NCBI GenBank assembly: GCA_032718475.1
Contig: JAUCBJ010003566.1
Location: forward strand, 1 to 44,800
DNA from: Nemertoderma westbladi
Lineage: Eukaryota > Animalia > Xenacoelomorpha
Length of the DNA stretch: 44,800 bases
Reading direction: 5' to 3'
The first letter of the stretch is position 1. Every line of letters begins with the position of its first letter. The notes beneath the pieces are model-generated. The model was given only the letters and a program-made list of their open reading frames with translations. It had not been told where the DNA came from and did no database searches. Below are positions 1-44,800 of this stretch, piece by piece. Both the position numbers and the translations under genes were made by a program.

Positions 1-1271
1 ATGCCTGGGTAAAACTTTCATCGCTAACCAATGCTGCCGATTTATCGGCCACTTTACTTTTACAAACACTAGCAAAGTGGTTTCTCTTTTTACAACGGTT
101 GCAAGTTTTACCTTGGGCAGGGCAGGTTTGACCCGGCCGGTGGCTTTCGTAGCCGCATTTGGTACATTTAGGTAAACTCGAATCGCGAGATCGATATTTG
201 TATCTATCCGAGCTTTTTCGACTGGAGGATCGGTATCTTCCCCGTGGATATTGGTTTTTCCCGGTTCCGGACGTTGCCCCTACCGACAGGTGCGGAGGGC
301 CGGACCTCGACCTCGACATGCGTTTTGCGTGCGCTCGCGCTGCCTCCTCGCTACAAACAAACTTTACAGTTTCCTTATGAGTGAGACCCGGTGACTTCGC
401 CAAAAGATCCTGGCGGATTTCCTCGTCGGAAATCCCGACTGTTATTAACGTCGACATCCAGGCATCTTCGTCCATATCGCGCAACCCTGCGGTTTCTGCC
501 ATTTCGCTTAATCTCGTATAGAAATTGTCGAACGACTCTGATTCCTGCTGTTTACAGGTCGTCAGTTCCCACCGGTCCAGCGCGACGTTTTGTTTTTCCT
601 TTAAATATCCCTCGAGTTTATCGAGAACTTCTTCTAGAGTCATAGTGGTATTCTGAGGGATTTCCACAGCGTATTGCAATTTTGAAAGGAAACTGGGGCT
701 GCAATACCCGAAGAAGGCAGATATTTGTTCGTCCCGTGGTTGTAAATGTAATTTAATAGTCTTAGCATAGTTACCCCACGAAATTCTCCATCTGTTGAAC
801 CTTTTTAAATCCACCTCCTCGTCAAGGGCGGGGGGGGCGGTTTACCGGTGCACGTGGGGCGTTGTCTTGCTTCTGGGTTGTTGTTCCCTGAATATGTGAC
901 GTGGACTGTAGCGGATCAGAGCCAGGCGACTGAATCTGAGAAAAATTGGCAGTAACTTGTTTCATAATAACTGCGATATCGTGGCGGTAACGGATCATCT
1001 CCATCGAGATATCGTCGAATTGGGTTTCTTCCGTCCCGCAGTCTGCCTCGGATTGCTGGAGAAGTTCTAACGATTCCCCGAGTTTATCGTATGTGTTCTC
1101 CAACTTATATTTCAATCGCTGAACATCTTCCATTAAAGATTGAGGACGTTCATCAGGATGCAGCTGCGTTAATTGGTCTAACGCAGCTTCCAACTGATTT
1201 TTTACCCTCGTATAATTCGATTTAAACCCGGAATGGCTTTTTTTCGAATGTGCGACGGTTTTCGCTTCCAT
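1..1271 (-). pseudogene. gag: Ty3/Gypsy LTR retrotransposon gag with two frameshifts (Mag-like, two CCHC knuckles); element continues off the left edge
   Basis: ORF 1271-822 continues after a frameshift at the G-run near 830 into PPALDEEVDLKRFNRWRISW...LDKLEGYL...KQQESESFDNFYTRLSEMA...GISDEEIRQDLL (capsid-like). After a second shift near 355 it reads CTKCGYESHRPGQTCPAQGKTCNRCKKRNHFASVC (about 166-62), two zinc knuckles typical of Gypsy gag. Confidence 0.88.
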
Positions 1272-1453
1272 TGTAAGATAGTAGTACCTACTGCTGTACA
1301 GTAGTACCGGTACGTGTAGTATGCCTACCGTACCTGCGTAGTGTACTTTTCCGGAAGGCAGGCGGTCCGTAGGCTCTCCGCTCCTTCAGTCCCGTCCTTT
1401 TTAGCTTCAGCAGTCCGTGTACAGTGCGGTTTCTTTGAATGCGTATATTAATA

Positions 1454-3977: not shown

Positions 3978-6388
3978 CCTCCTTGCGCCCGTGGCCCGCG
4001 TGAAGGTGAGCTTCCAAGCTCCTCCTTGCGCCCGTGGGCCCGCGTGAAGGTGAGCTTCCAAGCTCCTCCTTGCCCGCGTGGCCCGCGTGAAGGTGAGCTT
4101 CCAAGCTCCTCCTTGCGCCCGTGGGCCCGCGTGAAGGTGAGCTTCCAAGCTCCTCCTTGCGCCCGTGGGCCCGCGTGAAGGTGAGCTTCCAAGCTCCTCC
4201 TTGCGCCCGTGGCCCGCGTGAAGGTGAGCTTCCAAGCTCCTCCTTGCACCCGTGGCCCGCGTGAAGGTGAGCTTCCAAGCTCCTCCTTGCGCCCGTGGCC
4301 CGCGTGAAGGTGAGCTTCCAAGCTCCTCCTTGCGCCCGTGGCCCGCGTGAAGGTGAGCTTCCAAGCTCCTCCTTGCGCCCGTGGCCCGCGTGAAGGAGAG
4401 CTTCCAAGCTCCTCCTTGCCCGCGTGGCCCGCGTGAAGGTGAGCTTCCAAGCTCCTCCTTGCGCCCGTGGCCCGCGTGAAGGAGAGCTTCCAAGCTCCTC
4501 CTTGCGCCCGTGGCCCGCGTGAAGGAGAGCTTCCAAGCTCCTCCTTGCCCGCGTGGCCCGCGTGAAGGTGAGCTTCCAAGCTCCTCCTTGCGCCCGTGGC
4601 CCGCGTGAAGGAGAGCTTCCAAGCTCCTCCTTGCGCCCGTGGCCCGCGTGAAGGTGAGCTTCCAAGGTCCTCCTTGCGCCCGTGGCCCGCGTGAAGGTGA
4701 GCTTCCAAGGTCCTCCTTGCGCCCGTGGCCCGCGCGAAGGTGAGCTTCCAAGCTCCACCTTGCGCCCGTGGCCCGCGTGAAGGTGAGCTTCCAAGCTCCT
4801 CCTTGCGCCCGTGGCCCGCGTGAAGGTGAGCTTCCAAGCTCCTCCTTGCGCCCGTGGCCCGCGTGAAGGTGAGCTTCCAAGCTCCTCCTTGCGCCCGTGG
4901 TCCGCGTGAAGGTGAGCTTCCAAGCTCCTCCTTGCGCCCGTGGCCCGCGTGAAGGTGAGCTTCCAAGCTCCTCCTTGCGCCCGTGGCCCGCGTGAAGGTG
5001 AGCTTCCAAGCTCCTCCTTGCGCCCGTGGCCCGCGTGAAGGTGAGCTTCCAAGCTCCTCCTTGCGCCCGTGGTCCGCGTGAAGGTGAGCTTCCACGCTCC
5101 TCCTTGCGCCCGTGGCCCGCGTGAAGGTGAGCTTCCAAGCTCCTCCTTGCGCCCGTGGTCCGCGTGAAGGTGAGCTTCCACGCTCCTCCTTGCGCCCGTG
5201 GCCCGCGTGAAGGTGAGCTTCCAAGCTCCTCCTTGCGCCCGTGGCCCGCGTGAAGGTGAGCTTCCACGCTCCTCCTTGCGCCCGTGGCCCGCGTGAAGGT
5301 GAGCTTCCAAGCTCCTCCTTGCTCCCGTGGCCCGCGTGAAGGTGAGCTTCCAAGCTCCTCCTTGCGCCCGTGGTCCGCGTGAAGGTGAGCTTCCAAGCTC
5401 CTCCTTGCTCCCGTGGCCCGCGTGAAGGTGAGCTTCCAAGGTCCTCCTTGCGCCCGTGGCCCGCGCGAAGGTGAGCTTCCAAGCTCCACCTTGCGCCCGT
5501 GGCCCGCGTGAAGGTGAGCTTCCAAGCTCCTCCTTGCGCCCGTGGCCCGCGTGAAGGTGAGCTTCCAAGCTCCTCCTTGCGCCCGTGGTCCGCGTGAAGG
5601 TGAGCTTCCACGCTCCTCCTTGCGCCCGTGGCCCGCGTGAAGGTGAGCTTCCAAGCTCCTCCTTGCGCCCGTGGCCCGCGTGAAGGTGAGCTTCCACGCT
5701 CCTCCTTGCGCCCGTGGCCCGCGTGAAGGTGAGCTTCCAAGCTCCTCCTTGCGCCCGTGGCCCGCGTGAAGGTGAGCTTCCAAGCTCCTCCTTGCGCCCG
5801 TGGTCCGCGTGAAGGTGAGCTTCCACGCTCCTCCTTGCGCCCGTGGCCCGCGTGAAGGTGAGCTTCCAAGCTCCTCCTTGCGCCCGTGGCCCGCGTGAAG
5901 GTGAGCTTCCAAGCTCCTCCTTGCGCCCGTGGTCCGCGTGAAGGTGAGCTTCCAAGCTCCTCCTTGCGCCCGTGGCCCGCGTGAAGGTGAGCTTCCAAGC
6001 TCCTCCTTGCGCCCGTGGCCCGCGTGAAGGTGAGCTTCCAAGCTCCTCCTTGCGCCCGTGGCCCGCGTGAAGGTGAGCTTCCAAGCTCCTCCTTGCGCCC
6101 GTGGTCCGCGTGAAGGTGAGCTTCCACGCTCCTCCTTGCGCCCGTGGCCCGCGTGAAGGTGAGCTTCCAAGCTCCTCCTTGCGCCCGTGGTCCGCGTGAA
6201 GGTGAGCTTCCACGCTCCTCCTTGCGCCTGTGGCCCGCGTGAAGGTGAGCTTCCAAGCTCCTCCTTGCGCCCGTGGCCCGCGTGAAGGTGAGCTTCCACG
6301 CTCCTCCTTGCGCCCGTGGCCCGCGTGAAGGTGAGCTTCCAAGCTCCTCCTTGCTCCCGTGGCCCGCGTGAAGGTGAGCTTCCAAGCT
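3978..6388. repeat. GC-rich satellite, 43-bp unit, about 56 copies
   Basis: Unit ctcctccttgcgcccgtggcccgcgtgaaggtgagcttccaag; the 43-aa periodicity in all three minus-strand ORFs confirms the unit length. Confidence 0.98.
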
Positions 6389-6694
6389 TCTCTGTAGATT
6401 TCTGTTACCAAACATTTTGCAGGTAAATGGCTCTCAGCTGCGATTCAGCACAGTTGCGTGGCGCACAGCTGCTTGTGGAGCTCGATTCTCTGTAATAGTG
6501 TTGCAACGGGATCCCGATCCAGATGGAAAAATATCGGGATTTGCTCTATCTGAATTTATATGCCCTGCAGCTCAAAATTTGTAAAAATGTTACCAATAAC
6601 AGAAACAACAATTTTTCAGATAGGGGGGGAAACTGGACACACACATAAAAATATCTCTCCAGGGGAAACTGGACGCAAATCCCAGAAATGGTGA

Positions 6695-7161
6695 ATTTGG
6701 GATTTGGATTTTGGTAATAAGGAATTTGGGAATAAGGAATTTGGGATTTGGGAATAAGGTATTTGGGATTAAGGTATTTGGGATTTGGGAATACGGTATT
6801 TGGTATTTGGGAATAAGGTATTTGGGATTTGATTTGGGATTAAGGTATTTGGGATTTGGGAATAAGGTATTTGGGATTTGGGAATAAGGTATTTGGGATT
6901 TGGGAATAAGGTATTTGGGATTTGGGAATAAGGTATTTGGGATTTGGGAATAAGGGATTTGGGATTTGGGAATAAGGGATTTGGGATTTGGGAATAAGGT
7001 ATTTGGGATTTGGGAATAAGGTATTTGGGATTAAGGTATTTGGGATTTGGGAATACGGTATTTGGTATTTGGGAATAAGGTATTTGGGATTTGATTTGGG
7101 ATTAAGGTATTTGGGATTTGGAATTAAGGTATTTGGGATTTGGGAATAAGGAATTTGGGAT
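6695..7161 (+). repeat. Left subterminal telomere-like array (about 22-bp unit GGGAATAAGGTATTTGGGATTT)
   Basis: Directly visible G-rich array built from TTTGGGA and TAAGGTA subunits; reverse complement of 13876-14256. Confidence 0.95.
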
Positions 7162-7718
7162 CTGCCATTATTGGTTCTCTGAAGAAGATAAGCAATGCGA
7201 ATCTCATTACGCCTCTCCTCAACAAGTCAACCCCACCGACTAGCGGCTCTGGCTGTTTCCGCTGACGGGTCTCAGTTGAACAACGCGTCCTTTGGGATCT
7301 GGGATTTGGGATTAACGTTTTTTGTTTATATTTCAACAAACGAACAAAGATTATATAAATGAATACTGTAGAGTTATTGCCCAGGCCAAATGACCTTTAC
7401 ACGACCTATGGTCAAGCATATTGTTCGATCTTCCTTGGACATGTGGTATGTACAGTAATACATATTTGTGCCATTAAACGTTAATCTTCTATGAACCTAA
7501 TATCCTCCTTAGTCAATTGGCAGAGGTAATAATATAATAATATAATAATATATATAATAATATAATATAACGGCAGAAAGTCTGGTATTCTTCACATGGG
7601 CCCTGCAGTTTGCAGTTGAATAATACTAGTAGTAGTGTTTTATTATTAGTTTTTTAAGAGGCGTTTTCGTTAAGATATTCAATTATCTTAATATTTAATT
7701 TTCATACTTTCTTTGGTG

Positions 7719-9023
7719 ATGTTTTGCTGTGGGTTTCGCATGAAGACTATTGAGATTAGAGCAGATTGGTATGGAGAAAGTGGCAAAAAAGAATTTGTTG
7801 GGGTGCGATATAAATGTAGGGGAAATTCTCGACAATTTGTGAAGGGTTGTGGAAGAAATTTAAAGCCTGGATTAACCATAACTGAGTCCACATTTGAGTA
7901 TACTAATTTTGCCAATGATGCAATTGTATTTTGGGTGACAAATGTTAGTGTGTTTTCAAAATCTTTATTGAATCGATTTATAAGAGAATTGCACGTATTT
8001 GGTGCTACATTTGATGCTATTGCGATTAATTACCGAATAGAAACAGGTTGTGAGATAGAAAAACATTTATTATCCCAGGCTTTAGTCATGTATCGAATGC
8101 TGCAGTTCCATGTTATATGTAATTTACCTCCTATATTACAAAAATCATCTGTTATAGAAAATATGACATCGCATCATTTTGACATAGAGACATTTCTGGA
8201 AGGTAGTGGCTATGCTTCACATATTGATGAGTTACTACACAATAATCATTTAAATTGTAATGTTCCGAAATGTTCAGATGTAATTGTCGTTGATGGAAAT
8301 TATAAGCTTTTTCGAGGTATGTGTGGCAGGCCTCTAGATAACGGCGACGTTTGTGATTCTTCTGTAAAATTAGAAGCCGATGGCATGGTTAGGTGCAAAA
8401 TACATGGACCAGTTTCCAAACCTACAAAATCCTCAGAGTGCGATCTTCAACGTACAGATATGGAGTGTTCAAAAGTAGTGCCGAAGTTTTCAGGCCGTAC
8501 ATGTGGTGTTCTATTTGGGGTTAGGTCATGCGGATATGTCGAGTCATTTGCTGAAATGTCAAAAAAGGAAAGTCTGAAACAAGTTGCTGATTTTATAAGC
8601 GTTGACTATAAGGATACCAAATTAATAATTTATGATTATGCATGTGGACTTGATAAGTACGTAACTAGCCGTCGTCCCCATGAATGGTTGTTCATGGTAG
8701 ATAAATTCCATGTAAAAGGCCATAAATCACCAGAGTGTAAACCTGGTGGAGTCAATTACTTTTCTCATTCAAAGTTTCTGGAATACGAGCACATTAATTC
8801 TTCTGCAGCTGAACAATTTAACAAAAAGGCCAATCGTTCGAAGTCTACACTTAACTTTTGTTCGAAAAATATGTTTTACTTTTTCCTGCGATCTTATATA
8901 GTTTTCTATAATACATATGGGTCAATAAGCTTAAAAGTGGCCAATGGTTTGTCCGGAAGTTACGATATAATTTTAAATGCTTTAATTTATTCGTATTTAA
9001 TAAAGTTATATATTATTTTGTAG
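7719..9023 (+). CDS. KDZ (Kyakuja-Dileera-Zisupton)-family transposase with CxC5/CxC6-like cysteine clusters, 434 aa from first ATG
   Basis: Ordered motifs: HLNCNVPKC-VIVVDGNYKLFRGMC (first Asp), GVRSCGYV..FAEM..KES, IIYDYAC (second Asp), VDKFHVKGH..C, INSSAAEQFN (Glu), then an F..FL...I...N helix. N-terminal CC...YG.SG...YKC...C and C..PL...C...RC.IH clusters. Intact, intronless and inside the TIRs. Confidence 0.88.
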   Translation: MFCCGFRMKTIEIRADWYGESGKKEFVGVRYKCRGNSRQFVKGCGRNLKPGLTITESTFEYTNFANDAIVFWVTNVSVFSKSLLNRFIRELHVFGATFDAIAINYRIETGCEIEKHLLSQALVMYRMLQFHVICNLPPILQKSSVIENMTSHHFDIETFLEGSGYASHIDELLHNNHLNCNVPKCSDVIVVDGNYKLFRGMCGRPLDNGDVCDSSVKLEADGMVRCKIHGPVSKPTKSSECDLQRTDMECSKVVPKFSGRTCGVLFGVRSCGYVESFAEMSKKESLKQVADFISVDYKDTKLIIYDYACGLDKYVTSRRPHEWLFMVDKFHVKGHKSPECKPGGVNYFSHSKFLEYEHINSSAAEQFNKKANRSKSTLNFCSKNMFYFFLRSYIVFYNTYGSISLKVANGLSGSYDIILNALIYSYLIKLYIIL

Positions 9024-9903
9024 CTAATTTATTTGCGCAGCTTACGCACTAAAAATGATCAAAATCTGTAAAGGCAGTCAAAAGAAATGCCCCATCAAAG
9101 ACTGAAATATCGTGAAAATCACTTGTCCCTTACATGACAAGACCACAAACAACTGTAAATTGTATCACCCCACGTGGCAAATATATAGGAAACCTATATA
9201 TTGTTGGGGAGCTTAGATGTTTTGCTTTCTTTTCCGATATATTTCAGGCCATAATATTCATGTTGAACCATTTGAGATCGATACATAAAATGGGCATGGA
9301 TTTTTCAATTTTTGTGTCACATCTGTAACATTTACGTCTAGAATCTGAAGTAGTAACTGTAGGTTTTCAGTTTTGATATATTTAGAATCTACAGGGTTTC
9401 TAACATATATAGGCCAAATATCACATACAAAGGACAAGGTCATCTCATTTGGGAAGCATTTATGTTTAACAAAGTCAATATAGAAAGCATAAACGTCCAT
9501 ATCTGTAACGCTACAAATGTGGCCATAGATTTTGATAATATTAATCTCATACAAGTATAATGGTACGTGTGGAAAGGCAATTTTAATTTATGCCGCATCA
9601 ACCCCAAGAGTTAATGTGATAAATAAACACCTATGATGTATGGCGGTGGTAAGCGTTTTTGTCAACCATCTGTAACGCGTCACCGTTACAGTGCAGTGCG
9701 TTACAGATAGGGCATGTCTCATCTGTAACGCATTATATAACCAGTTATCGATGCGTTAAGACTATAGGTTTTCAGTCATATCTATATGACAGTCTATCTG
9801 TAACCTGAAATACAATAAGGCATCACTGACAATATTTGAATGCTTACGCGTTTGAGACGTCATTCGTCTTCCTACTGACATCCTGCTCATGGTAATGTGG
9901 TAG

Positions 9904-10195
9904 TGTAAGATGGGTAAGTGTAAAACGCGGAACCGGATGCAGGATCCGGATCGGTACCCGGATTTTGGGGTTAAAACGCGGATCCGGATTTTCATGAAAT
10001 CCGGAAATGAGTCCAAAATGCGTTTTCAAGATAATTTTCATTGTCAAGTGTTACTGGATCCCGTAAGGGGACTAAAACACGGATTCATGTTTATCTCTAT
10101 CCGGGAAGAGGTGATTGTGGATTCTGGGGAGTAAAGCGCAGATTCACTTCACCTATGAAATTGTATGAATCCAGAGCTTCTGGGTCCGTGGTAAA
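9904..10195. repeat. GC-richer patch of short palindromic ATCCGGAT/GGATCC motifs, probably a nested MITE fragment
   Basis: taaaacgcggaaccggat...ggatccggatc...taaaacgcggatccggattttcatgaaatccgga. No clear TIR or TSD. Confidence 0.4.
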
Positions 10196-11460
10196 TAATT
10201 TAGGAATTAATTGCAAATATATACAATCTCCATCTTATAAATTTTATGTATTAATAAAATGTGCTTTCTGGAAAATTTCGCTTTATTTCGTTTAGAATTG
10301 TAGAAGATACATTTCCTACAAACAGTGTTTTTTTTAACATACAATATATTGTACAGACGGTCCTTTGCCCAATGTTTTGTTTTTCGTTTTTCATGATTAG
10401 GGTCTGCAGACGTACAGTATATAGATAGACTTCAATAAATTTGTATGTCTAATTTCATCTGACATGAAGCAATAAATAAACAAAAGTAAAGAATCCACTG
10501 ACTGTTATCAGTGAGTCTTGTGTAACTTCAATGTAATGTAAGATTATAATTTACTCTAATGATTAAATTCTCTAATGCGTATAAAAGGCCTATATTTTAC
10601 TATCAATTTCTAAATCATTGGCTTAACATCACTTACTTACTTACATGACGGACTTGTGCACTACTTATATTATTGTGATAAGTTTAGTCAGATCCGTTTA
10701 TTGGATGAGTTAATGGGCGTCTCTGAATCAGTTGCAGAGAAACGCCAGGGAGCGGTTAAATAAGTACAGAGAAAAAATGGACCGCGGTTGTTATACAGAG
10801 TATTTTAAACAAGCATAAAAAGCGGCGCGATAGAGAAAATTTAACACGGGATAAAAAAAATCGTGTAAAACAAGATTATCGGTTACACAGAAAAATGTTA
10901 ATGAAAAACTTTTTCTATATTTATTGGAAATCATATGTATTAAGTACATATATAATTTTGTGGATGCGTTGGTTATGGTCAGATATCTCTGTTTGTTACA
11001 GATGTTTGTCCAATAAATTACCTTATTGTCGAAGCAATAAGTTATAAATACTGCAAAATCCATATAACATAATTACCGTTACAGATGGCCGTTACAGACG
11101 TTTGTCCCATAAATGTCATCACTGTAATGCGTTACAGTGGTAGACAAAAACGTTACAGATATGACATTAGTTTTTGCCATATATATCCCTTTGAGCAGCG
11201 CGTCATGCTCTCCCTCTACCATCACAAGATTCGCCATGAAATTAACTTTCGAATGGTGTATGGTATGGCACTAATTTCCGACAAAAATTTTTCGGTCAAT
11301 TTGTACCCCTTTTTGGCCACTTTTAAGCTTATTGACCCATATATATTGCATTAAACTTTGTTTTTCCCTACTAATACTTTTCATAATATTGGTTATTGTC
11401 GGTACATTAAATACAATTCGCATAATACCGGGTACTGTATTATTATATATATTATGGAAG

Positions 11461-12651
11461 ATGTCTAAACTGCTGCAATATACAACGAATAAATCTCAAT
11501 CTGCTGGTTGTACAAGTGGGCAGATAGCTATTCAGTTGATAAGTGCAACGTCAGTTATAATGGGAAAAGCAACAGTTAAACTTACCGATAATTGGTATGA
11601 GCCAGTCTTGGTATGGGCATGTAATATAGCGCAAAGTGGCTCCAATAAAAGTGCCGGGAGTAATGAATTGTGTGAAAGCATGAGGTTATTTGATGACGTG
11701 GGATACTATACTGACTTTACTATTGAAAAACTTTTGGCTGATCTGTCAACTAAAAACAGTAGAGCAACTTTGTTTTACGACGAGGGAAAACTATTCTTAA
11801 ACCAAACAGGAAGAGACAAGGCTCTGAAATCACGGGCACATTTGAATAGTCTGTATGGGGGTGGTTCAGTAGTTAAAGATACTGTAAGTGGTGGCAAAAT
11901 GGAAACTGAGTCTACGCGAGTTGCTGTGTTGATGAATATACAGCCGGGCCCATTCATAGATAAATTATTGGGAGATGATAACAATGATGGTTTAGCATCA
12001 CGATTTTTATTGGCCTTTAAAGAAGATCGCGAAGTGAGAACGTTTGAAAGTTTGAAATCTATTCCAAAGTTATCGACTAAAATCGCTGATATAATAAGCG
12101 CTGTACATAATTCTGCAGAGGGGATGGAATTTGTCTTTTCAGAAAATGCTGAACAAGAGTTTGCAGCATTCCACAATGATCACGAAGAAAGAATTAAAAG
12201 CCGTGATACAATGAAAGTAGATGTGATTCGCGATGCATTAAGTAAGAATAAAGGTATGGTGTCACGTATTAGTGCATGCATTCATGTCCTTGAACTGGTC
12301 TTCAGTGGGAAACCTATTGATAATGAAATAATGGGCAGCGATATTCAATACGCTATTGAACTGGTTCAGAATAGTGAGAACGCTCTTACAGTTCTAAGTG
12401 AATTAGGATACAACATACATGAAGAAGAAAAAAGTAAAGATCTTATCAACAATTTAAAACGTATTGTCGACAAAACACTTAAGGCCAACAAGAGCTTTAC
12501 ATACCAGACAATGAACGATCGTTGTTCTTCAATGCTAAAAGCTTTCAATATATCATCTCAAGAAGAATGGATATCACTTATGCAACGTCATGGTTTCGTG
12601 AAATCCCAAACGCTTAGAGGAAATAGGATTTGTTTCCAAGTTGAACAGTAA
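11461..12651 (+). CDS. DUF3987/YfjI-like AAA+ ATPase/helicase (396 aa from first ATG) with possible C-terminal winged helix
   Basis: Walker A-like IAQSGSNKS, DFTIEKLLADL, Walker B LFYDEG, LNSLYGG..V.KD, MNIQPGPF and DGLASRFL (Arg finger-like), in the order and spacing typical of DUF3987 proteins. Intact and intronless. Confidence 0.82.
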   Translation: MSKLLQYTTNKSQSAGCTSGQIAIQLISATSVIMGKATVKLTDNWYEPVLVWACNIAQSGSNKSAGSNELCESMRLFDDVGYYTDFTIEKLLADLSTKNSRATLFYDEGKLFLNQTGRDKALKSRAHLNSLYGGGSVVKDTVSGGKMETESTRVAVLMNIQPGPFIDKLLGDDNNDGLASRFLLAFKEDREVRTFESLKSIPKLSTKIADIISAVHNSAEGMEFVFSENAEQEFAAFHNDHEERIKSRDTMKVDVIRDALSKNKGMVSRISACIHVLELVFSGKPIDNEIMGSDIQYAIELVQNSENALTVLSELGYNIHEEEKSKDLINNLKRIVDKTLKANKSFTYQTMNDRCSSMLKAFNISSQEEWISLMQRHGFVKSQTLRGNRICFQVEQ

Positions 12652-12784
12652 ATTCTAACTAATTTCATATCTATCTATGTATCACATTGTTATACTGTAA
12701 TTCATATATATATCAGGCTTATAACTCATATATAGAGGCATATTATACTCTTCTACCTCAAGTCATTTATCGGTAAATCCGCAT

Positions 12785-13876
12785 TTCATTTTTGTATTCA
12801 TGCATATGCCTTTGTAACCCATTCTTTTACTAACCTGCATAACACGTGACACGTGTTATCTTTCGTTTATTGTTTTGGTTCTATCTACATGCTTCCGTAA
12901 CCTGCTCCTTTACTAACCTGCATAATCTTGTAACACGTGTTAACTATCGTTTATTGTTTTGGTTCTATCTACAGGCCTCTGTAACCAGCTCCTTTACTAA
13001 CCTGCATAATATTGTAACACGTGTTAACATTAACTATCTTTTCTTGTTTTTGTTTTATCTGCCCGCCTCTGTAACCTGCTCATTTACTAACCTGCATAAT
13101 CTTGTAACACGTGTTAACTATAGTTTATTGTTTTGGTGCTATCTACATGCCTCTGTAACCAGCTCCTTTACTAACCTGCATAATCTTGTAACACGTATTA
13201 ACTATCGTTTATTGTTTTGGTTCTATCTGCCCGCCTCTGTAACCTGCTCCTTTACTAACCTGCATAATCTTGTAACACGTGTTAACTATCGTTTATTGTT
13301 TTGGTTCTATCTACCCGCCTCTGTAACCTGCTCCTTTACTAACCTGCATAATCTTGTAACACGTGTTAACTATCGTTTATTGTTTTGGTTCTATCTACCC
13401 GCCTCTGTAACCTGCTCCTTTACTAACCTTCATAATCTTGTAACACGTGTTAACAATCGTTTATTGTTTTGGTTCTATCTGCCCGCCCCTGTAACCTGCT
13501 CCTTTACTAACCTGCATAATCTTGTAACACGTGTTAACTATCGTTTATTGTTTTGGTTCTATCTGCCCGCCTCTGTAACCTGCTCCTTTACTAACGTGCA
13601 TAATCTTATAACACGTGTTAACTGTCGTTTATTGTTTTGATTCTATCTGCCTGCCTCTCTAACCTGCTCCTTTACTAACCTGCATAATCTTGTAACATGT
13701 GTTAACTATCGTTTATTGTTTTGGTTCTTTCTACCCGCCTCTATATCCTGCTCCTTTACTAACCTGCATAATCTTATAACATGTGTTAACTATCGTTTAT
13801 TGTTTTGGTTCTATCTACATGCCTCTGTAATCTGCTCCTTACTAACCTGCATAATCTTATAACATGGGTTAACTAT
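12785..13876 (+). repeat. 84-bp tandem array (about 13 copies) inside the right part of the KDZ element
   Basis: Unit tactaacctgcataatcttgtaacacgtgttaactatcgtttattgttttggttctatctacccgcctctgtaacctgctcctt; 28-aa periodicity in ORF 12846-13640. Confidence 0.97.
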
Positions 13877-14256
13877 CCCAAGTACCTTATTCCCAAATTC
13901 CAAATACCTTAATCCCAAATACCTTATTCCCAAATCCCAAATACCTTATTCCCAAATCCCAAATACCTTAATCCCAAATACCTTATTCCCAAATACCTTA
14001 ATCCCAAATACCTTATTCCCAAATCCCAAATACCTTAATCCCAAATCCCAAATACCTTATTCCCAAATCCCAAATACCTTAATCCCAAATCCCAAATACC
14101 TTATTCCTAAATACCTTAATCCCAAATACCTTAATCCCAAATACCTTATTCCCAAAACCCAAATACCTTATTCCCAAATCCCAAATACCTTAATCCAAAT
14201 ACATTATTCCCAAATCCCAAATACCTTAATCCCAAATTCCTTAATCCCAAATCCCA
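13876..14256 (-). repeat. Right subterminal telomere-like array (AAATCCCAAATACCTTATTCCC)n
   Basis: Reverse complement of the 6695-7161 array; sits just inside the right TIR. Confidence 0.95.
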
Positions 14257-14965
14257 CATGGTATTTGCGTCCAGTTTCCCCCCCTGTCTCCAATTTTTTG
14301 GTTAACGGTTTTGATTTTACAACTACCTACAGTCAGTGCTACAGAGATATACAAGAATGTATCATATTATAAAATAATAGAAACACTTGTTGCTTTTTAT
14401 TGAATATGATAAACATATTGAAGTGGCAACGATTCAGTCAGACTGCAGTAGATATATGGGAAATAAACTACGACTGTGAAAACCATAAAAAAAAGTCGGT
14501 GGACATTTTTACATATCATTTTCTAGAACATGAGAACATGATTTTTACTCCTACAAAGATGGCAGGGCAGGACATCGATATCGTTTTGGAAAACATCGTT
14601 TTGGATGAGTTAATGGCCGCAATAAAATTAAAAATGCCGATCCCGACAGTGGCAATCCCGATCCCCTTGCTACACTATTCTCTATAGTAGAACTATGTGA
14701 CGCCTGTGATGTCTGCAGCAGAACTATCTGCTGCACAAGTTCATGAGTGTCATACACTCTAGTACTTTTTGTCGAAGCCAGCGGCATATAGGATGCAGCT
14801 GGTTCGAAAAGGGCTGTCTGATGTGTCATGATTTAGGGAGAACGATGAATCGAATATTACGTTTTAATGTAATTTTAACTTCAAAGAGCCATTTAACTAT
14901 GGAAAGTGTAATAATTCGAAAAAACTATAAATTAACTAACTTATTACCATTGGGGTTTCACGCTG

Positions 14966-18623: not shown

Positions 18624-18844
18624 TAAGACATGGGCTTCAAAACTTGTCTGGTGACACTCAATTCAATTAAATAATAGTTATTATTATTGCGGAAAACAGT
18701 AGAAAGACAAGTCTTATTTGCGATTTTGATGGAAATTTACTGAAGTAGCTGTTAGCAGTTGTCGTCGTCGTCCACAAAAAGAGGGCCACGAACGGTAAGG
18801 GTAGAGGGAAACGGGGCGGGGCACGTTCCACAGGCTCAGATGAA

Positions 18845-20728
18845 GAGGGAAACGTTCCTGACAGAGAGAGAGAAACGTTCCCCATAGGGAGAGGGAAACG
18901 TTCCTCACAGGGAGAGGGAAACGTTCCTCACAGGGAGAGGGAAACGTTCCTCACAGGGAGAGGGAAACGTTCCTCACAGGGAGAGGGAAACGTTCCTCAC
19001 CGGGAGAGGGAAACGTTCTTCATCGGGAGACGTTCCTCACAGGGAGGGGAGAGGGGAACGTTCCTCACAGGGAGAGGGAAAAGTTCCTCACAGGGAGAGG
19101 GAAACGTTCCTCACAGGGTGACGGAAACGTTCCTCACAGGGAGAGGGAAACGTTCCTCACCGGGAGAGGGAAACGTTCTTCATCGGGAGACGTTCCTCAC
19201 AGGGAGGGGAGAGGGGAACGTTCCTCACAGGGAGAGGGAAAAGTTCCTCACAGGGAGAGGGAAACGTTCCTCACAGGGTGACGGAAACGTTCCTCACAGG
19301 GAGAGGGAAACGTTCCTCACCGGGAGAGGGAAACGTTCTTCATCGGGAGACGTTCCTCACAGGGAGGGGAGAGGGGAACGTTCCTCACAGGGAGAGGGAA
19401 ACGTTCCTCACAGGGAGAGGGAAACGTTCCTCACAGGGAGAGGGAAACGTTCCTCACAGGGAGAGGGAAACGTTCCTCACCGGGAGAGGGAAACGTTCTT
19501 CACAGGGAGAGGGAAACGTTCCTCACAGGGAGAGGGAAACGTTCCTCACAGGGAGAGGGAAACGTTCCTCACAGGGAGAGGGAAACGTTCCTCACCGGGA
19601 GAGGGAAACGTTCTTCATCGGGAGAGGGAAACGTTCCTCACAGGGAGAGGGAAACGTTCCTCACAGGGAGAGGGAAACGTTCCTCACAGGGAGAGGGAAA
19701 CGTTCCTCACAGGGAGAGGGAAACGTTCCTCACAGGGAGAGGGAAACGTTCCTCACAGGGAGAGGGAAACGTTCCTCACAGGGAGAGGGAAACGTTCCTC
19801 ACAGGGAGAGGGAAACGTTCCTCACAGGGAGAGGGAAACGTTCCTCACAGGGAGAGGGAAACGTTCCTCACAGGGAGAGGGAAACGTTCCTCACCGGGAG
19901 AGGGAAACGTTCTTCATCGGGAGACGTTCCTCACAGGGAGGGGAGAGGGGAACGTTCCTCACAGGGAGAGGGAAAAGTTCCTCACAGGGAGAGGGAAACG
20001 TTCCTCACAGGGTGACGGAAACGTTCCTCACAGGTAGAGGGAAACGTTCCTCACATGGATGGAAACGTTCCCTAACAGGGCAGGAAGAGGAAAACGTTCC
20101 ATACATGAAGAGGGAAACGTTCCTCACAGGGAGGGAAACGTTCCTCACAGGGAAACGTTCCTCACAGGGGAGGGAAGTGTTCCGCACAGAAAGAGGGAAT
20201 CGTTCCTCACAAGAGAGGGAAACGTTCCTCACAGAAAGAGGGGAACGTTCCTCACAAGAGAGGGAAACGTTCCTCACAAGAGAGGGAAACGTTCCTCTCA
20301 AGAGAAGGAAACGTTCCTCACAGAAAGGGGGAAACGTTCCTCACAAAGAGAGGGAAACGTTCCACACAGAAGAAAGAGGGAAACGTTCCTCACAAGAAAG
20401 GAAAACGTTCCTCACAAGAGAGGGAAACGTTCCTCACAGGGAGGGAAACGTTCCACAAAGGGAGAGGAAAACGTACCTCACAGCAGGGAGATGGAAACGT
20501 TCCTCACAGGGAGAGGGAAACGTTCCTCACCGGGAGAGGGAAACGTTCCTCACAGAAAGGGGGAAACGTTCCCCATAAGAAGGAAAACGTTCCTCACAAG
20601 AGAGGGAAACGTTCCTCACAGGGAGGGAAACGTTCCTCATCGGGAGATGGAAACGTTCCTCACCGGGAGAGGGAAACGTTCCTCACAGAAAGGGGGAAAC
20701 GTTCCTCACAAAGAGAGGGAAACGTTCT
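18845..20728. repeat. Satellite, 23-bp unit, about 80 copies, with a 160-bp higher-order repeat at left and a degenerate right third
   Basis: Unit gggagagggaaacgttcctcaca; variant blocks recur at a 160-bp offset (19118 and 19278). Confidence 0.98.
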
Positions 20729-27300: not shown

Positions 27301-27610
27301 CAATTAGGCTAATTAATAAATACAACATTACGGCCATTCATTACACTCACCTCTCAAAACTTTATGATTGTAGTCGATTTATTGGGTTTAAGATAGAGCC
27401 TATTGTGGTCCTTGGTTACCTTGGTTGCGACGGTTAATTTTGAAGAGACTAACTGAGACTTGTATTACGATCACTATAATCAGACACCTCTATAGTATAA
27501 CTATTAATATTTAATAAATATTAATAAATAATAACAAATAACTGGAGGCCTACAACGATACTAACTAACTACTGTGTTGTAGAAATAGCGTTAACAATAG
27601 ATAAACTAAA

Positions 27611-27953
27611 GGGCCCATATGAAGAATACCAGACTTTCTGCCGTTATATTTCACTTTGCAGTTACCGGGGTTACCCCCATGTGAAGAATACCAGGTTTTC
27701 ACTTTTCGGTCGACTTTTTATTGGAATTTTATATATTGAGATTTTTTATTTTTTTTTAATTTATCTTCATTAAGTGTTTTATAGCGCTTATTTCTGTCTT
27801 ATAACCTGTACATATACTAATTCGTTTATTGTTTTGGTTAGATTCAGCCCTTCTGTAACCTGTGGTTTTAGTGAAAACCTGGTATTTCTTCACATGGGGG
27901 TAACTGCAAAGTGAAATATAACGGCAGAAAGTCTGGTATTCTTCACGTGGGCC
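27611..27953. mobile_element. MITE with about 55-bp TIRs
   Basis: GGGCCCATATGAAGAATACCAGACTTTCTGCCGTTATATTTCACTTTGCAGTTACC is inverted at 27899-27953. Confidence 0.85.
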
Positions 27954-29818: not shown

Positions 29819-30573
29819 CTGGAACCTTTCCCACAGTAATTGTGGATGATTCAGATTCACTGAGAGTTATCTGTTTCTTTGGGAGTGATCTTGTGAAAGT
29901 TTCATCACACACACCTTCTTCGTGAGATCCTTTCCTAAGTTAGATGCGTGTTCTTTAGTTATATTGTGATGTGATCGAGAAATACTGTAATACTTAAATT
30001 ATATGTTCTTACTGTAATAAATCGTTACCGCACCTACATTTATTTCTGCACTTTCCCTGTGAATTTCATTGAATTTTGAGGAAATCCTTGGAATTTGGGC
30101 CCTTAGTGGCAGTTAAGTTAGTCTGTCGTTCTAAGGCAAAAATCACTGAACTCGAATTTTGACGAACATGCTATTTATAGTGGTATCATTTTAAAGCTTA
30201 CGGGTACGGCTGGTAGTGGTACTGTATAACTTATACAGTAGACAAGCTTGCCAGCCGAGAGCTGCCAATAATGGGCGGATCCATTGCTATCTATATATTT
30301 TTGTTGTAATAATTTACGCGCCTATGCAGGGCAGCCTAATAACGAAAAACTAAACATTGGGCGAAGTACACAATTGTATTGTAGTATATAATATTGTATG
30401 TAAAAAAAACACTGTTTGTAAGAAAGGTATCTTTTCCTACAATTCTAAACGAAATATAGCGAAATTTTGCAGAAAGCATGTCCAATAGAAGCTCCCTATG
30501 GGGTGTCGACAGAATTTTTATTGAGTGAATTCTACGATTATGATCGGTCATTCTAGAATTAATTTCAATGTTG

Positions 30574-34524: not shown

Positions 34525-34875
34525 TTATTTGTTGAAGTTTCGGTGGAGAGATATCTGTACGTTCATAACGAGATCGATTAGTTTGGATATCACTTCCTCG
34601 CTCTTCTCCTTCACCTGGTGGTCCATCTCCTGGATCTGTCGATCTGTTTGCTCTTGTATTTGGCGTTGGACTTCCTCTTTGGACCCCATATGCTTTTTCT
34701 CGTGCTCTCGGTACTGTTGTTCGCGCTCCTCGTTGTATTTCTTCACTTCCGCCTGTGCCTCCTCTTTCGCTTGTTTCAGCCGTCGTCCTTTCTTCTTTCT
34801 CGCTTCCGCTACTTTCTCGGCCGCTCGCTTTTCCGCTGCTAATAGCTGCTGAATCCCCTGAGTCTGGGACGCCAT
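34525..34875 (-). CDS. ATP6V1G: V-type proton ATPase subunit G, intronless CDS, 116 aa
   Basis: [43 protein letters not shown]...HMGS...LHRNF is the canonical animal subunit G sequence, full length. Confidence 0.98.
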
Positions 34876-37323
34876 AATTCAGTGATTTGAATTTGCGAAA
34901 ACCGGTATGGCCTACCGAGGGCTGTAGCAGTAAGGTGTACGGGTACAGCGGTATCAGCAGATCAGGGTATGCTGGTATTTTACTACTGTCTGACTGTACT
35001 ACAGTGCTACCGGTACCCCTATAGCAGCACTACACACAGCAGCAGTAAAGCAGTAAAAAGGGAAAACTGTTGTCAGTTGTTGTCTGCAGTTTATAATATT
35101 ACTACTGAGTAGTAGAACTACCGGCGACGCACAAGGCCTACAAGGTACAGTAATTACGAAATTTTCGATATTTCACGAAAAAATTCTAATTTTAATAAAA
35201 ATAATGTATCAGTTTATTTATATCATCAGTAGCCTACTGTTTGATGTATTTTATTAAATACTGTATCAAGCGAATTTATACTTTTAAGGGGAGGGTGGTA
35301 CTGACTTTTAAATATTTGATTAATTTTTATAAATTAATTTTTTATTTTTTTTTCTACTGTATGTCATCTTACAGTCAACAGTCTTAGAGTACACCATGTC
35401 CCGTAATATAGTGTAATAATACCCCCCCCCCCCCCCCCCTCAGATTTTTCTACAAATCTTTATCATATTGCTTGAAATTTGAAACACAACTAGTTCCACT
35501 CACCGTCGATGACCCCATGAAGCCGGAATTTTCGATTTTGCCTTTAAATTTTTTTTATAAGCGTTTTAAAAAAGTGTCTTTTGCGAAATCGCACCCTCTG
35601 TATCGTAGCCATTCTTCACATTAGTCGTAATTTTTTCATATCATTAAAAAGCTTGCGTTGCAAGGATTCCAAATATGTAACAATATCTGAATTTCGTTGA
35701 GAAACAGCTGAGATATATGAGATCTGAGGAATGTGAAAATAATTAAATTAGTCTGTTTGGTAAATATGTTGATAAAATGCAGACATGGTACGTAAATGTC
35801 AGATTTGTAATCGGACAATAATTTTTTCGGAATTTTAACTATTTAATTATAACTTTTTGGGGGAATTTTTAGGATTTGGCTATTCTGTTATTGACGAAAA
35901 TAACTAAAAAGTACAGTAACTACTGAAAAGTAGTTTAAGTGGAAAGTGTTGCTGAATAGAAAAGATTCGGAAGAGAAGATCAAAGAAAAATTAATTTCAA
36001 ATTATTAGACAGTTAGGTGGATTTTGGTTTTAATGTGGTCTTATTCAATGAATAACTCGATACGTCGTTGTTCATAAAATAGCCCTTTATAGGCCTAGAG
36101 TTTTGACACGAGTGTGTTGTTTCCCGAGCGACAGCGAGAGAAATAACAAAACGAGGGCCGTAATAGTTATTTATTACATGGAGAAAAAAGTGGAACTTTT
36201 TTTCGTTATTCTCGATGAGGCATTTCATCTACCGAGCGCTAGGGAGGTTAACAAAGGTTCGAGAGAATATTTTAAAAAATGTTCTACGTCTTTTTCCCCA
36301 TGTAATAATACGTAATTTTCTTTTAAATTGGTACTTTTTTGTTGCTTATATGTAATTCTTCAATAAAACATAGAAAGATGTAGTGATAGAAAATAAATTG
36401 AACTGTAGTATTAAACTATATTGCTTCCATAGTTTCTGCGATTCAAATTATTGGACTCTTCAACTCCTAGTGCTGCCTTACTCAATGTTCAATAATTTAG
36501 TGTTTACGAATATTTATTACGTAACTAGAGAGCCGCTTAACTACATAAACCAATATTGGATATTGAGTTCCGTTTTGGAGTTCGCCTTGCAGACACTAAA
36601 GTTGCAATAACTTTTGAGTGTGTGAATGGATTTTGCTCAAATTACTTGCAAACCTTTTATATGTCGAGCTCTTTCAACACATTAAATAAAATTTAAGAAA
36701 TTCCACCAAAAATATTTTTATTTACTTTTTCGCCGGGAAGAAAGTAAAAGCAGCAATCATTTTTTTCATCATCCTATGGGTTACTTTGCGGCGGCCTTGA
36801 AAGTTCAAACAACTATTATTGAGTATTCTAGGCATATGCTCAAGTTAGGTGATTGTCGATTCGCCCCTAAACTTATGTAATCTATGTATTATTGATTGGA
36901 TTAAAATAAAAAAATGTATTTAATTGGTACAAATATTTGGTTGAATTAAATTTTGAATTAAAAAAACTATTCCGTAAAAATATAACTATTTAAGTGGAGT
37001 GGCAAAAAAAGTAGGTTTTTTTGTAGAGCGAAAGCAAGACAACAAATGTTACTTTTTGCCACTCTTCTCACTTTTATCTGGACCTATTTTTAGGTATAAA
37101 TATCGTCCATCGAAGTGTCTTCCATAGAAAAATACCGTTATATAAAGCGAAATAGCAAAACAGGGTCTGTAATATAGGCCCTCTATTATGATATTTATAG
37201 TATTCTAGAATATTAAGTAACCTGTGGATACAATAAGCGCTATCTATTTAAATGTAATTATTATTAATGTCATGGAAATTACGTTTAAATTTGAATCGAA
37301 CATAACTTTTGTTGACAAAGAAG

Positions 37324-38210: not shown

Positions 38211-38226
38211 CTATAAAAAAAAGTAT

Positions 38227-38790
38227 AATATGGGTGGTGTACACGCACACTACATGTAATATGGGTGGTGTACACGCACACTACATGTAATATGGGTGGT
38301 GTACACGCACACTACATGTAATATGGGTGGTGTACACGCACACTACATGTAATATGGGTGGTGTACACGCACACTACATGTAATATGGGTGGTGTACACG
38401 CACACTACATGTAATATGGGTGGTGTACACGCACACTACATGTAATATGGGTGGTGTACACGCACACTACATGTAATATGGGTGGTGTACACGCACACTA
38501 CATGTAATATGGGTGGTGTACACGCACACTACATGTAATATGGGTGGTGTACACGCACACTACATGTAATATGGGTGGTGTACACGCACACTACATGTAA
38601 TATGGGTGGTGTACACGCACACTACATGTAATATGGGTGGTGTACACGCACACTACATGTAATATGGGTGGTGTACACGCACACTACATGTAATATGGAT
38701 GGTGTACACGCACACTACATGTAATATGGGTGGTGTACACGCACACTACATGTAATATGGGTGGTGTACACGCACACTACATGTAATATG
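38227..38790. repeat. Minisatellite, 31-bp unit, about 18 nearly identical copies, in the last syntrophin intron
   Basis: Unit aatatgggtggtgtacacgcacactacatgt. Confidence 0.98.
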
Positions 38791-39162
38791 TGTGGACAAA
38801 GGAAAATTAAAAAAATATATTTAAATAGCAATAAATAATACATATTTAAGTGGGGTGGAGAAAAAAGTAGACTTTTTTTCGACCGATATTATTTGGCGAG
38901 AGTAGCGAGACAATATGACGATTTGTTTAAACACCAGTAGGTACTACTACAGTACTGGTGTTTAAAAACAGTCAAGTCTACCTAATGCTACTAACTCTAC
39001 CTAAGTGCTTATCCTAATTTAAAAATTAGTGTTTGTTGTAGGGCAGGGCCTACTAAATTCATTGTGCTCATGCTCACATAGTATATAGTCAGTCAGTCCT
39101 TGTCAATGTCAACTATAAATAACTACTGTTGAAATTAATGTAATAATAATTCAATAAACGAC

Positions 39163-39626: not shown

Positions 39627-42600
39627 ACTGTCCACGTACCTACAGTACCTTACTGCGGTGTACCAGAGAGTAGGTCCCTGTACCTACCTTACGGCGGTGT
39701 ACCAGACAGTAGGTCCCTGTACCTACCTTACTGCGGTGTACCAGACAGTAGGTCCTGTACCTACCTTACGGCGGTGTACCAGACAGTAGGTCCACGTACC
39801 TACCTCACTGCGGTGTACCAGACAGTAGGTCCCTGTACCTACTTTACTGCGGTGTACCAGACAGTAGGTCCCTGTACCTACCTCACTGCGGTGTACCAGA
39901 CAGTAGGTCCCTGTACCTACCTTACTGCGGTGTACCAGACAGTAGGTCCACGTACCTACCTTACTGCGGTGTACCAGACAGTAGGTCCCTGTACCTACCT
40001 TACTGCGGTGTACCAGACAGTAGGTCCCTGTACCTACTTTACTGCGGTGTACCAGACAGTAGGTCCCTGTACCTACCTTACGGCGGTGTACCAGACAGTA
40101 GGTCCACGTACCTACCTCACTGCGGTGTACCAGACAGTAGGTCCCTGTACCTACTTTACTGCGGTGTACCAGACAGTAGGTCCCTGTACCTACCTCACTG
40201 CGGTGTACCAGACAGTAGGTCGCTGTACCTACTTTACTGCGGTGTACCAGACAGTAGGTCCAAGTACCTACCTCACTGCGGTGTACCAGACAGTAGGTCC
40301 CTGTACCTACCTTACGGCGGTGTACCAGACAGTAGGTCCACGTACCTACCTCACTGCGGTATACCAGACAGTAGGTCCCTGTACCTACTTTACTGCGGTG
40401 TACCAGACAGTAGGTCCCTGTACCTACCTCACTGCAGTGTACCAGACAGTAGGTCCCTGTACCTACCTTACGGCGGTGCACCAGACAGTAGGTCCACCTA
40501 CCTACCTTACTGCGGTGTACCAGACAGTAGGTCCCTGTACTTACCTTACGGCGGTGTACCAGACAGTAGGTCCACCTACCTACCTTACGGCGGTGTACCA
40601 GACAGTAGGTCCACGAACCTACCTCACTGCGGTGTACCAGACAGTAGGTCCCTGTACCTACCTCACTGCGGTGTACCAGACAGTAGGTCCCTGTACCTAC
40701 CTTACGGCGGTGTACCAGACAGTAGGTCCACCCACCTACTTTACTGCGGTGTACCAGACAGTAGGTCCCTGTACCTACCTCACTGCGGTGTACCAGACAG
40801 TAGGTCCCTGTACCTACCTTACGGCGGTGTACCAGACAGTAGGTCCACCTACCTACCTTACTGCGGTGTACCAGACAGTAGGTCCCTGTACCTACCTTAC
40901 GGCGGTGTACCAGACAGTAGGTCCACCTACCTACCTTACGGCGGTGTACCAGACAGTAGGTCCACGAACCTACCTCACTGCGGTGTACCAGACAGTAGGT
41001 CCCTGTACCTACCTTATGGCGGTGTACCAGACAGTAGGTCCACGTACCTACCTTACTGCGGTGCACCAGACAATAGGTCCCTGTACCTACCTTACTGCGG
41101 TGTACCAGACAGTAGGTCCACGTACCTACCTTACTGCGGTGTACCAGACAGTAGGTCCCTGTACCTACCTTACTGCGGTGTACCAGACAGTAGGTCCCTG
41201 TACCTACCTTACTGCGGTGTACCAGACAGTAGGTCCACGTACCTACCTTACTGCGGTGTACCAGACAGAAGGTCCCTGTACCTACCTTACTGCGGTGTAC
41301 CACACAGTAGGTCCACGTACCTACCTTACTGCGGTGTACCAGACAGTAGGACCACGTACCTACCTAACTGCGGTGTACCAGACAGTAGGTCCCTGTACCT
41401 ACCTCAATGCGGTGTACCAGACAGTAGGTCCACGTACCTACCTTACTGCGGTGTACCAGACAGTAGGTCCACCTATCTACCTTACTGTGGTGTACCAGAC
41501 AGTAGGTCCCTGTACCTACCTTACTGCGGTGTACCAGACAGTAGGTCCCTGTACCTACCCTTACTGCGGTGTACCAGACAGTAGGTCCACGTACCTACAG
41601 TACCTCACTGCGGTGTACCATACCGTAGATCCACGTACCTACCTTACTGTGGTGTACCAGACAGTAGGTCCACGTACCTACAGTACCTCACTGCGGTATA
41701 CCATACCGTAGATCCACGTACCTACCTTACTGCGGTGTACCAGACAGTAGGTCCACGTACCTACCTCACTGCGGTGTACCAGACAGTAGGTCTACGTACC
41801 TACCTTACTGCGGTGTACCAGACAGTAGGTCCCTGTACCTACCTTACTGCGGTGTACCAGACAGTAGGTCCACGTACCTACCTTACTGCGGTGTACCAGA
41901 CAGTAGGTCCACGTACCTACCTTACTGCGGTGTACCAGACAGTAGGTCCCTGTACCTACCTTACTGCGGTGTACCAGACAGTAGGTCCACGTACCTACCT
42001 TACTGCGGTGTACCAGACAGTAGGTCCCTGTATCTACCTTACTGCGGTGTACCATACAGTAGGTCCCTGTACCTACCTTACTGCGGTGTACCAGACAGTA
42101 GGTCCACGTACCCACCTTACTGCGGTGTACCAGACAGTAGGTCCCTGTACCTACCTTACTGCGGTGTACCAGACAGTAGGTCCCTGTACCTACCTTACTG
42201 CGGTGTACCAGACAGTAGGTACACGTACCTACCTTACTGCGGTGTACCAGGCAGTAGGTCCCTGTACCTACCTCACTGCGGTGTACCAGACAGTAGGTCC
42301 ACGTACCTACCTTACTGCGGTGTACCAGACAGTAGGTTCCTGTACCTACCTTACTGCGGTGTACCAGACAGTAGGTCCCTGTACCTACCTTACTGCGGTG
42401 CACCAGACAGTAGGTCCACGTACCTACCTTACTGCGGTGTATCAGACAGTAGGTCACTGTACCTACCTTACTGCGGTGTACCAGACAGTAGGTCACTGTA
42501 CCTACTTTACTGCGGTGTACCAGACAGTAGGTCCCTGTACCTACCTCACTGCGGTGTACCAGACAGTAGGTCCCTGTACCTACTTTACTGCGGTGTACCA

Positions 42601-44765: not shown

Positions 44766-44800
44766 GATGTAGGGTGCGTGGTCAAAATGACTCCAGTCAG

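Follow-up and report, generated by a model that had tools for sequence, protein, structure and literature searches.

Described transposons of the KDZ superfamily show, in various combinations, a KDZ catalytic domain, a cysteine cluster ahead of that domain, terminal inverted repeats (TIRs), accessory genes and nested insertions (PMC12730594, PMC11343200, PMC9297572, PMC12477816). Among other eukaryotic DDE transposons, KolobokH carries a RecQ helicase (PMC9587614) and AcademH carries a helicase (PMC10045372), and the helicase-bearing Academ lineage has a target-site duplication (TSD) length of its own. Proteins with the DUF3987 domain are described as superfamily 6 (SF6) helicases, distant relatives of MCM with a C-terminal winged helix, and in most cases they are associated with primases (PMC4889955). 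A bacterial representative unwinds DNA 5'-3' as an oligomer and requires both Walker motifs (PMC11724360). The element discussed here shares all the KDZ features named above and lies in a 44,800-bp stretch of the Nemertoderma westbladi genome (assembly GCA_032718475.1, contig JAUCBJ010003566.1, positions 1 to 44,800, forward strand), which as a whole is called the window. It carries two genes in open reading frames (ORFs), a KDZ transposase (ORF1) followed by a DUF3987 ATPase (ORF2), a pairing that an earlier note on this DNA had thought possibly undescribed. No description of the KDZ-DUF3987 pair was found in the literature searched, the scope of which did not extend to Repbase Reports, supplements or subscription papers, and the claim holds to that extent. 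The element and its site are made up of the following features.

6494-14679 (parts 6494-6616 and 14299-14679): host repeat that predates the KDZ insertion, about 504 bp once the KDZ element is taken out, with inverted 20-bp ends that pair at 18/20
6609-6616: left copy of the 8-bp TSD, CAATTTTT
6617-14290, both ORFs on the plus strand: KDZ element
6617-6638, plus strand: left TIR, 22 bp, its core repeated at 6662-6677
6695-7161, plus strand: left subterminal array, built from G-rich units of 7 and 15 bp
7719-9023, plus strand: ORF1 as read, 434 residues, open and uninterrupted
7719-8918, plus strand: codons 1-400 of ORF1, with CxC5/CxC6-like cysteine clusters and the KDZ catalytic domain (D192, D306, E365)
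8919-11338: nested TIR element, 2,420 bp, with perfect 26-bp TIRs and GGG ends
11343-11354, plus strand: native last three codons and stop of ORF1, pushed away by the nested element
11461-12651, plus strand: ORF2, 396 residues, open, a stand-alone DUF3987 AAA+ ATPase
12808-13877, plus strand: 84-bp tandem array, 12.7 copies
13875-14256, minus strand: right subterminal array, inverted relative to the left one
14269-14290, minus strand: right TIR
14291-14298: right copy of the TSD, CAATTTTT, an exact repeat of the left copy

The limits first proposed for the element were borne out. Its 22-bp TIRs pair at 20 of 22 positions when the left end is set against the reverse complement of the right end, an exact 8-bp TSD flanks them, and the G-rich arrays mirror each other. 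A chance occurrence of the TSD 8-mer has a probability of about 3e-5 from the base composition of the flanks, and its frequency in the window is 1.1e-4 per position; the TSD length of 8 bp rests on the single insertion at 6617-14290. The terminal base is one of the two TIR mismatches, and the outermost bases of the element are CA..TC. These bases, at 6617 and 14290, are unpaired, and the left form is the family form in contigs from public sequencing runs. Once the nested insert is removed, the element has a length of 5,250 bp.

Judged by its homologues and motifs, ORF1 is a compact CxC5-type KDZ transposase. The KDZ assignment rests on these because its direct Pfam match is below the cut-off (E 0.0048, 17.1 bits against 26.6), so that the KDZ motif series reported earlier is upheld by homologues and by D-D-E and Cys/His motifs, but not by the direct match. 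An exhaustive search returned 156 homologues at E<=0.001, the best at 35% over residues 44-388. A Pfam scan of 61 of the 150 listed homologues, comprising the top matches and longer ones, gave KDZ in 47, CxC5 in 16, CxC4 in 11 and DUF3987 in 1. Counting the alignment rows that have a letter at the position, conservation reaches 38/41 for D192, 54/54 for D306 and 52/53 for E365, which we take to be the catalytic residues, and D328-x-x-H331, H335 and C340 are likewise conserved. ORF1 aligns along its length, N-terminal half included, with CxC5-bearing homologues, and its nearest Atlas clusters carry CxC5/CxC6, with a recognition score of 2290 that is just below the threshold. Pfam gave no direct CxC match, and neither CxC4 nor SWIM at E<=1. 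Two of the KDZ homologues (P0027 and P0090) have a chromodomain inserted ahead of the catalytic part.

Two intact, intronless and co-oriented ORFs had been reported, and both are indeed open, uninterrupted and in the same orientation, but the tail of ORF1 as read derives from the nested insert. Native ORF1 has 403 residues, and residues 401-434 of the read-through form come from the insert. Homologues stop at a median of 9.5 residues past the N398 column (52 rows), compared to 5 for native ORF1 and 36 for the read-through form. With the insert removed, the native ORF1 stop and the ORF2 ATG are 106 bp apart, and the ORF2 frame is open for 45 codons upstream; given this open frame, an ORF1-ORF2 fusion by frameshift may occur. 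A spliced fusion was rejected for now, as none of the 8 in-frame GT-YAG pairs has a consensus donor.

ORF2 matches DUF3987 in Pfam with E 1.2e-33 (117 bits against a cut-off of 27), and, as first proposed, the second gene of the element codes, by profile and motifs, for a whole DUF3987 ATPase of the MCM-related superfamily 6. All four of its motor motifs, Walker A (K63), Walker B (D107-E108), Q161-P162 and the arginine finger R181, align with 22 bacterial DUF3987 members, and a profile built from 20 bacterial proteins alone matches ORF2 with E 1.9e-35. The Walker A of the bacterial members reads RK, KK, GK and once NK, and this variability argues that the Asn before K63 in ORF2 is not a sign of decay. 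ORF2 also matches the PHROG 'DNA helicase' (E 7.3e-19), and its Atlas matches are DUF3987 in 30/30 cases, the best three being about 400 residues long and mostly viral (score 0.97). No match of ORF2 was found among PDB sequences, phages or plasmids, and a PDB search with a profile of the partner ATPases from other loci gave chance matches only. The ORF2 protein is predicted to be a ring helicase or DNA-unwinding motor. No primase or polymerase gene was recognized in the element, which makes self-replication unlikely, and its ORFs gave no DEAD or Helicase_C match.

To see whether the pair recurs would require other loci, and these were obtained from a scan of Joint Genome Institute (JGI) metagenomes with seven ORF1 homologues, which gave 13 loci. 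Two of them, L004 and L008, are 99.5% identical, leaving 12 loci, of which 6 were informative, with at least 1 kb beside the transposase frame, and six were too short. Of the 6 informative loci, 4 have a DUF3987-type frame next to the KDZ gene. Pfam recognizes DUF3987 in L007 (E 3.4e-9), L010 (4.1e-13) and L004/L008 (4.4e-5, with the frame split in two), while the ATPase of L009, which has no direct Pfam match, was identified by its similarity to that of L007 (E 1.8e-55). Transposase and ATPase genes face head-to-head in L004/L008, L007 and L010, whereas L009 has them in tandem, the order seen in the window element, with inverted arrays at both ends. The partner ATPase frame of L009 (4805-7594) has 930 codons with a long, acidic, repetitive tail, and the ends of that element consist of a G-run and short AT-rich repeat arrays. 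A gene model of the rotifer Brachionus calyciflorus (CAF1043593.1) combines a KDZ domain with a DUF3987 tail and falls elsewhere in the transposase tree. In the two remaining informative loci, L001 and L006, no such frame was seen within the flanks available. As read from sequence, the pair seems to be present in three lineages, namely the window element, the clade of the metagenome loci and, weakly, the rotifer.

The ancestry of the partner ATPases was examined together with 22 bacterial DUF3987 proteins. ORF2, L007, L009 and L010 share N-K in Walker A and fall on one side of a branch with support of 74/88, and a single origin of the KDZ-linked ATPases, which this tree neither shows nor rejects, may be entertained. 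The split L004/L008 frame, the rotifer piece, L014, L158, L159 and duplicates among the 30 bacterial loci were left out of the ATPase tree; L014, a Gordonia phage helicase fetched as an outgroup, was left out because it has only a weak DUF3987 match. As a near-copy of L004, L008 was left out of the transposase tree. The N-K pair was rejected as a unique marker of KDZ-linked ATPases, since it also occurs in the bacterial protein L152. The DUF3987 copies of the bacterial genome bin G051 were considered as a second KDZ family and rejected, as no KDZ match was found for them. That bin holds 10 diverged DUF3987 paralogues (L149, L153, L155 and L157-L163) at 66-70% guanine plus cytosine (GC); the Walker motifs of several are altered, and no KDZ gene accompanies them.

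Public sequencing runs show that the element is not alone. Words from its interior are present in 5 of the 8 listed runs, from three studies, and one of these runs may derive from the source sample; their shares in other runs are 0.76, 0.74, 0.69, 0.40 and 0.10, and the linkage of the genes cannot be read from these figures, as the nested element makes up 43% of the query. No RNA dataset among the listed runs contains words of the element. Left ends were compared in four runs (X1-X4, with X2 and X3 from one sample), with 30 pieces listed out of 334 and 24 loose ends out of 119. Among the pieces listed, contigs of 72, 60 and 71 bases in X1, X2 and X3 start exactly at 6617 with 0 differences, at depths of 250, 464 and 193, whereas most of the remaining listed pieces have 10-30; depth is not copy number. 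Contigs with foreign flanks, among those listed, join at 6605 (X1), 6616 (X2) and 6609 (X4). X3 also contains a diverged left end with 7 differences, and a variant at 6658 is common among the left-end copies. As contigs begin right at the left terminus and the flanks differ in other copies, these data support a multi-copy KDZ family with near-identical left ends, in agreement with the young, mobile family first suspected. A search of JGI metagenomes for the exact left end found nothing, and word-index protein searches gave 0 matches among 1,274, 3,561 and 922 candidates. In viral contigs no locus was obtained for ORF1, ORF2 or two KDZ alignments, although two stretches passed tblastn in one search.

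The explanation we favor, and which we hold to be about evenly balanced between right and wrong, is that this KDZ transposon uses its own DUF3987 ATPase as a ring motor in transposition. Following DDE chemistry, the transposase would bind the TIRs and subterminal arrays, cut the ends and join them to target phosphates 8 bp apart. The ATPase would then oligomerize, load at the new junctions or the donor site, on gaps of single-stranded DNA or on 5' tails, and move 5' to 3', unwinding DNA or stripping the transpososome, and host polymerases and repair would finish the event. A clean TSD such as this one is the usual trace of DDE integration. A broader proposal, held more tentatively and a little short of an even chance, is that the window element, compact, intronless and recently mobile, is the minimal system of an undescribed, widespread eukaryotic DDE lineage in which a phage-derived, MCM-like ring motor is the obligatory second subunit.

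The ATPase could instead be a dedicated partner of the IstB, TnsC or MuB kind, which binds and bends target DNA and recruits and activates the transposase with no unwinding. AAA+ regulators of transposases are established (PMC11208146), and the co-oriented two-gene layout with its 106-bp spacer is like that of IS21. The three listed foreign-flank left ends agree with the window site from 6605, 6609 and 6616, a hint of target preference that would suit such a partner. However, IstB and TnsC belong to a different AAA+ clade from SF6, and gene orientation varies between head-to-head and tandem among the relatives. ORF2 itself lies in the MCM-related SF6 family, whose tested member unwinds DNA (PMC4889955, PMC11724360), and we regard this alternative as unlikely.

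A number of observations weigh against the ring-motor explanation. KDZ elements often carry accessory genes (PMC12477816, PMC11343200), and no ATPase was seen at L001, the locus closest to ORF1, in the 1,068 bp on its upstream side and the 951 bp on its downstream side, nor at L006 in 2,581 bp upstream and 98 bp downstream. The four positive loci form one transposase clade (100/100), at about 50% GC and far from ORF1, and therefore amount to a single observation. ORF1 is a long branch of unsure placement in the catalytic-domain trees. ORF2 has 20-22% identity to the other partners (phmmer E 0.01-0.016), the branch support of 74/88 is weak at a point where long branches meet, and the N-K of bacterial L152 reduces the value of that motif. 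The DUF3987 match of the rotifer model covers 77 residues and falls short of the Pfam cut-off (E 2.3e-5), and profile comparison did not recover this tail (probability 0.5%). Single-sequence models of the two proteins are too poor to use, with predicted local distance difference test (pLDDT) values of 35 and 33, and the other copies of the family in public runs are known by their left ends, not by ORF2.

Part of this also bears on the possibility that the DUF3987 gene is cargo, acquired repeatedly by KDZ elements and kept for a purpose such as counter-silencing, or merely hitch-hiking. Cargo would be in line with the varied accessory genes of KDZ elements (PMC12730594, PMC11343200, PMC12477816), with the lack of a partner in the available flanks of L001 and L006, and with partner ATPases so highly diverged that the tree does not establish a single origin. 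On the other hand, ORF2, about 20% identical to its counterparts in the other KDZ clade, has kept 396 open codons and every motor motif, and the partner adjoins the transposase in three separate lineages. The cargo reading seems improbable, to about the same degree as the IstB-like role, and we retain the ring motor as our preferred reading.

The repeat arrays inside the element had been called telomere-like, a description that did not survive. They consist of 7- and 15-bp units, TTAGGG is absent from each subterminal array (TTAGG occurs 0 and 1 times), and with a TTAGGG count of 0 in both a telomere origin is ruled out; they are subterminal repeats, and the units of the left array are likely to be putative transposase-binding repeats. 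The 84-bp array next to the right one, absent from the earlier note, has a mean pairwise identity of 92% (11 units). A core of about 45 bp of its unit is also found at 8 dispersed sites of the window (3688, 20817, 24234, 26121, 27824, 28019, 29170 and 31058), which indicates that a repeat motif common in the window was amplified into a satellite within the transposon. Upstream of ORF1, a 40-50-bp piece (about 7570-7610) matches a dispersed repeat at 27603-27650 and 27915-27953 with 94-97%.

The dispersed copies of the 84-bp unit's core raise the question of whether ORF2, together with the 84-bp array, entered this one KDZ copy as a mobile unit of its own; the array derives from, or fed, another repeat family, and one nested insertion, of 2,420 bp, is already proven in this element. 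Yet no inverted or direct repeat pair bounds ORF2, which begins 106 bp past the native ORF1 stop, and L001 likewise has a tandem array behind its transposase, with 82-bp units in a like position and of a sequence unrelated to the 84-bp array. We consider a separate unit very unlikely, the least probable of the alternatives weighed here.

The element had been described as complete, with intact ORFs, which holds for both ends, the TSD and the open ORFs. However, the 2,420-bp nested element, a feature overlooked at the time, interrupts the last codons of ORF1, so that the description stands with the insert as a qualification. A self-comparison of the window exposed it by an inverted match of 35 bp that pairs the end of ORF1 with the region before ORF2, and it is flanked by an ATAT duplicate at 8915-8918 and 11339-11342; an AT or TA duplication with 27-28-bp TIRs fits as an alternative. 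Perfect inverted matches in the interior reach 30 bp, while 200 simulations gave 20 bp at most. The left half contains all 5 plus-strand occurrences of a 7-bp motif of the nested element, the right half contains 5 of its 7 minus-strand occurrences, and the motif is oriented inward from both halves. The nested element has no frame of 120 codons and no recognized gene, and two of its short frames have no Pfam match; Sola and ISL2EU are candidate superfamilies, and we assign it to neither. It contains a 130-bp piece (10262-10391) that is 82% like 30338-30478 of the window. In the giant KDZ elements of Ectocarpus, nested insertions are often fixed among copies (PMC12477816). The KDZ element itself is inserted into the older host repeat of about 504 bp, the left part of which is present in many diverged contigs in 4/4 public runs, and the nesting at this site is three levels deep, from host repeat to KDZ element to 2,420-bp insert.

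Elsewhere in the window, the following features were noted; the long ORFs within the arrays of 43-, 23-, 31- and 39-bp units result from the repetition itself.

2-1385, minus strand: Gag-like frames with a weak zf-CCHC_5 zinc-knuckle match (E 7.5e-5), probably part of a long terminal repeat retrotransposon
3978-6392: long tandem array, 43-bp units
18844-20727: long tandem array, 23-bp units
34528-34878, minus strand: V-ATPase subunit G in one frame without interruption (Pfam E 1.1e-33), perhaps a retrocopy or a gene with one exon; it marks the host as a eukaryote, probably an invertebrate animal
38226-38795: long tandem array, 31-bp units
39646-44766: long tandem array, 39-bp units

ATPase-assisted transposition is a textbook theme in bacteria, with IS21, Tn7, Mu and the CRISPR-associated transposons. 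KDZ biochemistry is little studied, and the members described so far are large and rich in introns. With two genes of about 400 codons, each a single exon, and with defined ends and a defined TSD, the window element would offer a small system for testing the role of a helicase in cut-and-paste transposition. If the proposal of a ring-motor lineage is true, it would be an example of eukaryotic transposons taking up a phage-type replication gene, and would account for some of the orphan DUF3987 genes in annotated animal genomes.

By its domain, cysteine cluster and TSD, the window element is a member of the KDZ superfamily, and its 8-bp TSD is as in Zisupton, Dileera and Cryptococcus KDZ1. It has an intronless transposase of 403 residues in 5.25 kb, whereas known KDZ elements have multi-exon transposases of up to 1,400 residues in 6.4-31.7 kb, and its accessory gene is a DUF3987 ATPase instead of TET/JBP or an ORF of unknown nature. 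CxC5/CxC6 is a mark of Kyakuja. However, fungal Kyakuja has a 7-bp TSD, CA..TG ends and no TIRs (PMC12730594), unlike the 8-bp TSD, CA..TC ends and 22-bp TIRs found here, and narrow-sense Zisupton codes for a long multi-exon protein with CxC4 and SWIM (PMC11343200, PMC9297572), whereas ORF1 has neither domain and a single exon. The window element is therefore not a narrow-sense Zisupton and, by its ends, not a fungal Kyakuja.

AcademH and KolobokH resemble it as eukaryotic DDE transposons that encode a helicase (PMC9587614, PMC10045372, PMC10799480), but their transposases belong to other superfamilies and their helicases are of the RecQ or DEAD/Helicase_C type, not a phage-type MCM-related AAA+. 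Lanisha, the earlier note's example of a eukaryotic DDE transposon that may carry an AAA+ helicase, is a lineage of the CMCT clade similar to EnSpm, with clade TSDs of 2-5 bp (PMC12730594); the window element differs in its KDZ ORF1 and 8-bp TSD. In the literature searched, no described eukaryotic DDE element with an AAA+ partner was found, the available text of PMC12730594 and PMC10799480 does not contain the term 'DUF3987', and the DUF3987 papers found concern, by their titles and the starts of their abstracts, prokaryotes or viruses only. The DUF3987 SF6 helicases of phages and bacterial elements (AgaPH; PMC4889955, PMC11724360) share with ORF2 the domain, the motifs and a length of about 400 residues, but go with a primase or primase-polymerase, whereas the neighbor of ORF2 is a transposase and no primase was found. 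IS21 IstA/IstB, Tn7 TnsB/TnsC and Mu A/B share a DDE gene closely followed by an AAA+ gene, inverted ends and repeated binding sites (PMC11208146); they are prokaryotic, and their ATPase remodels target DNA and activates the transposase. Though helicase-carrying DDE transposons are already known, what is new here is a compact KDZ copy with both ends, its TSD and two open single-exon genes.

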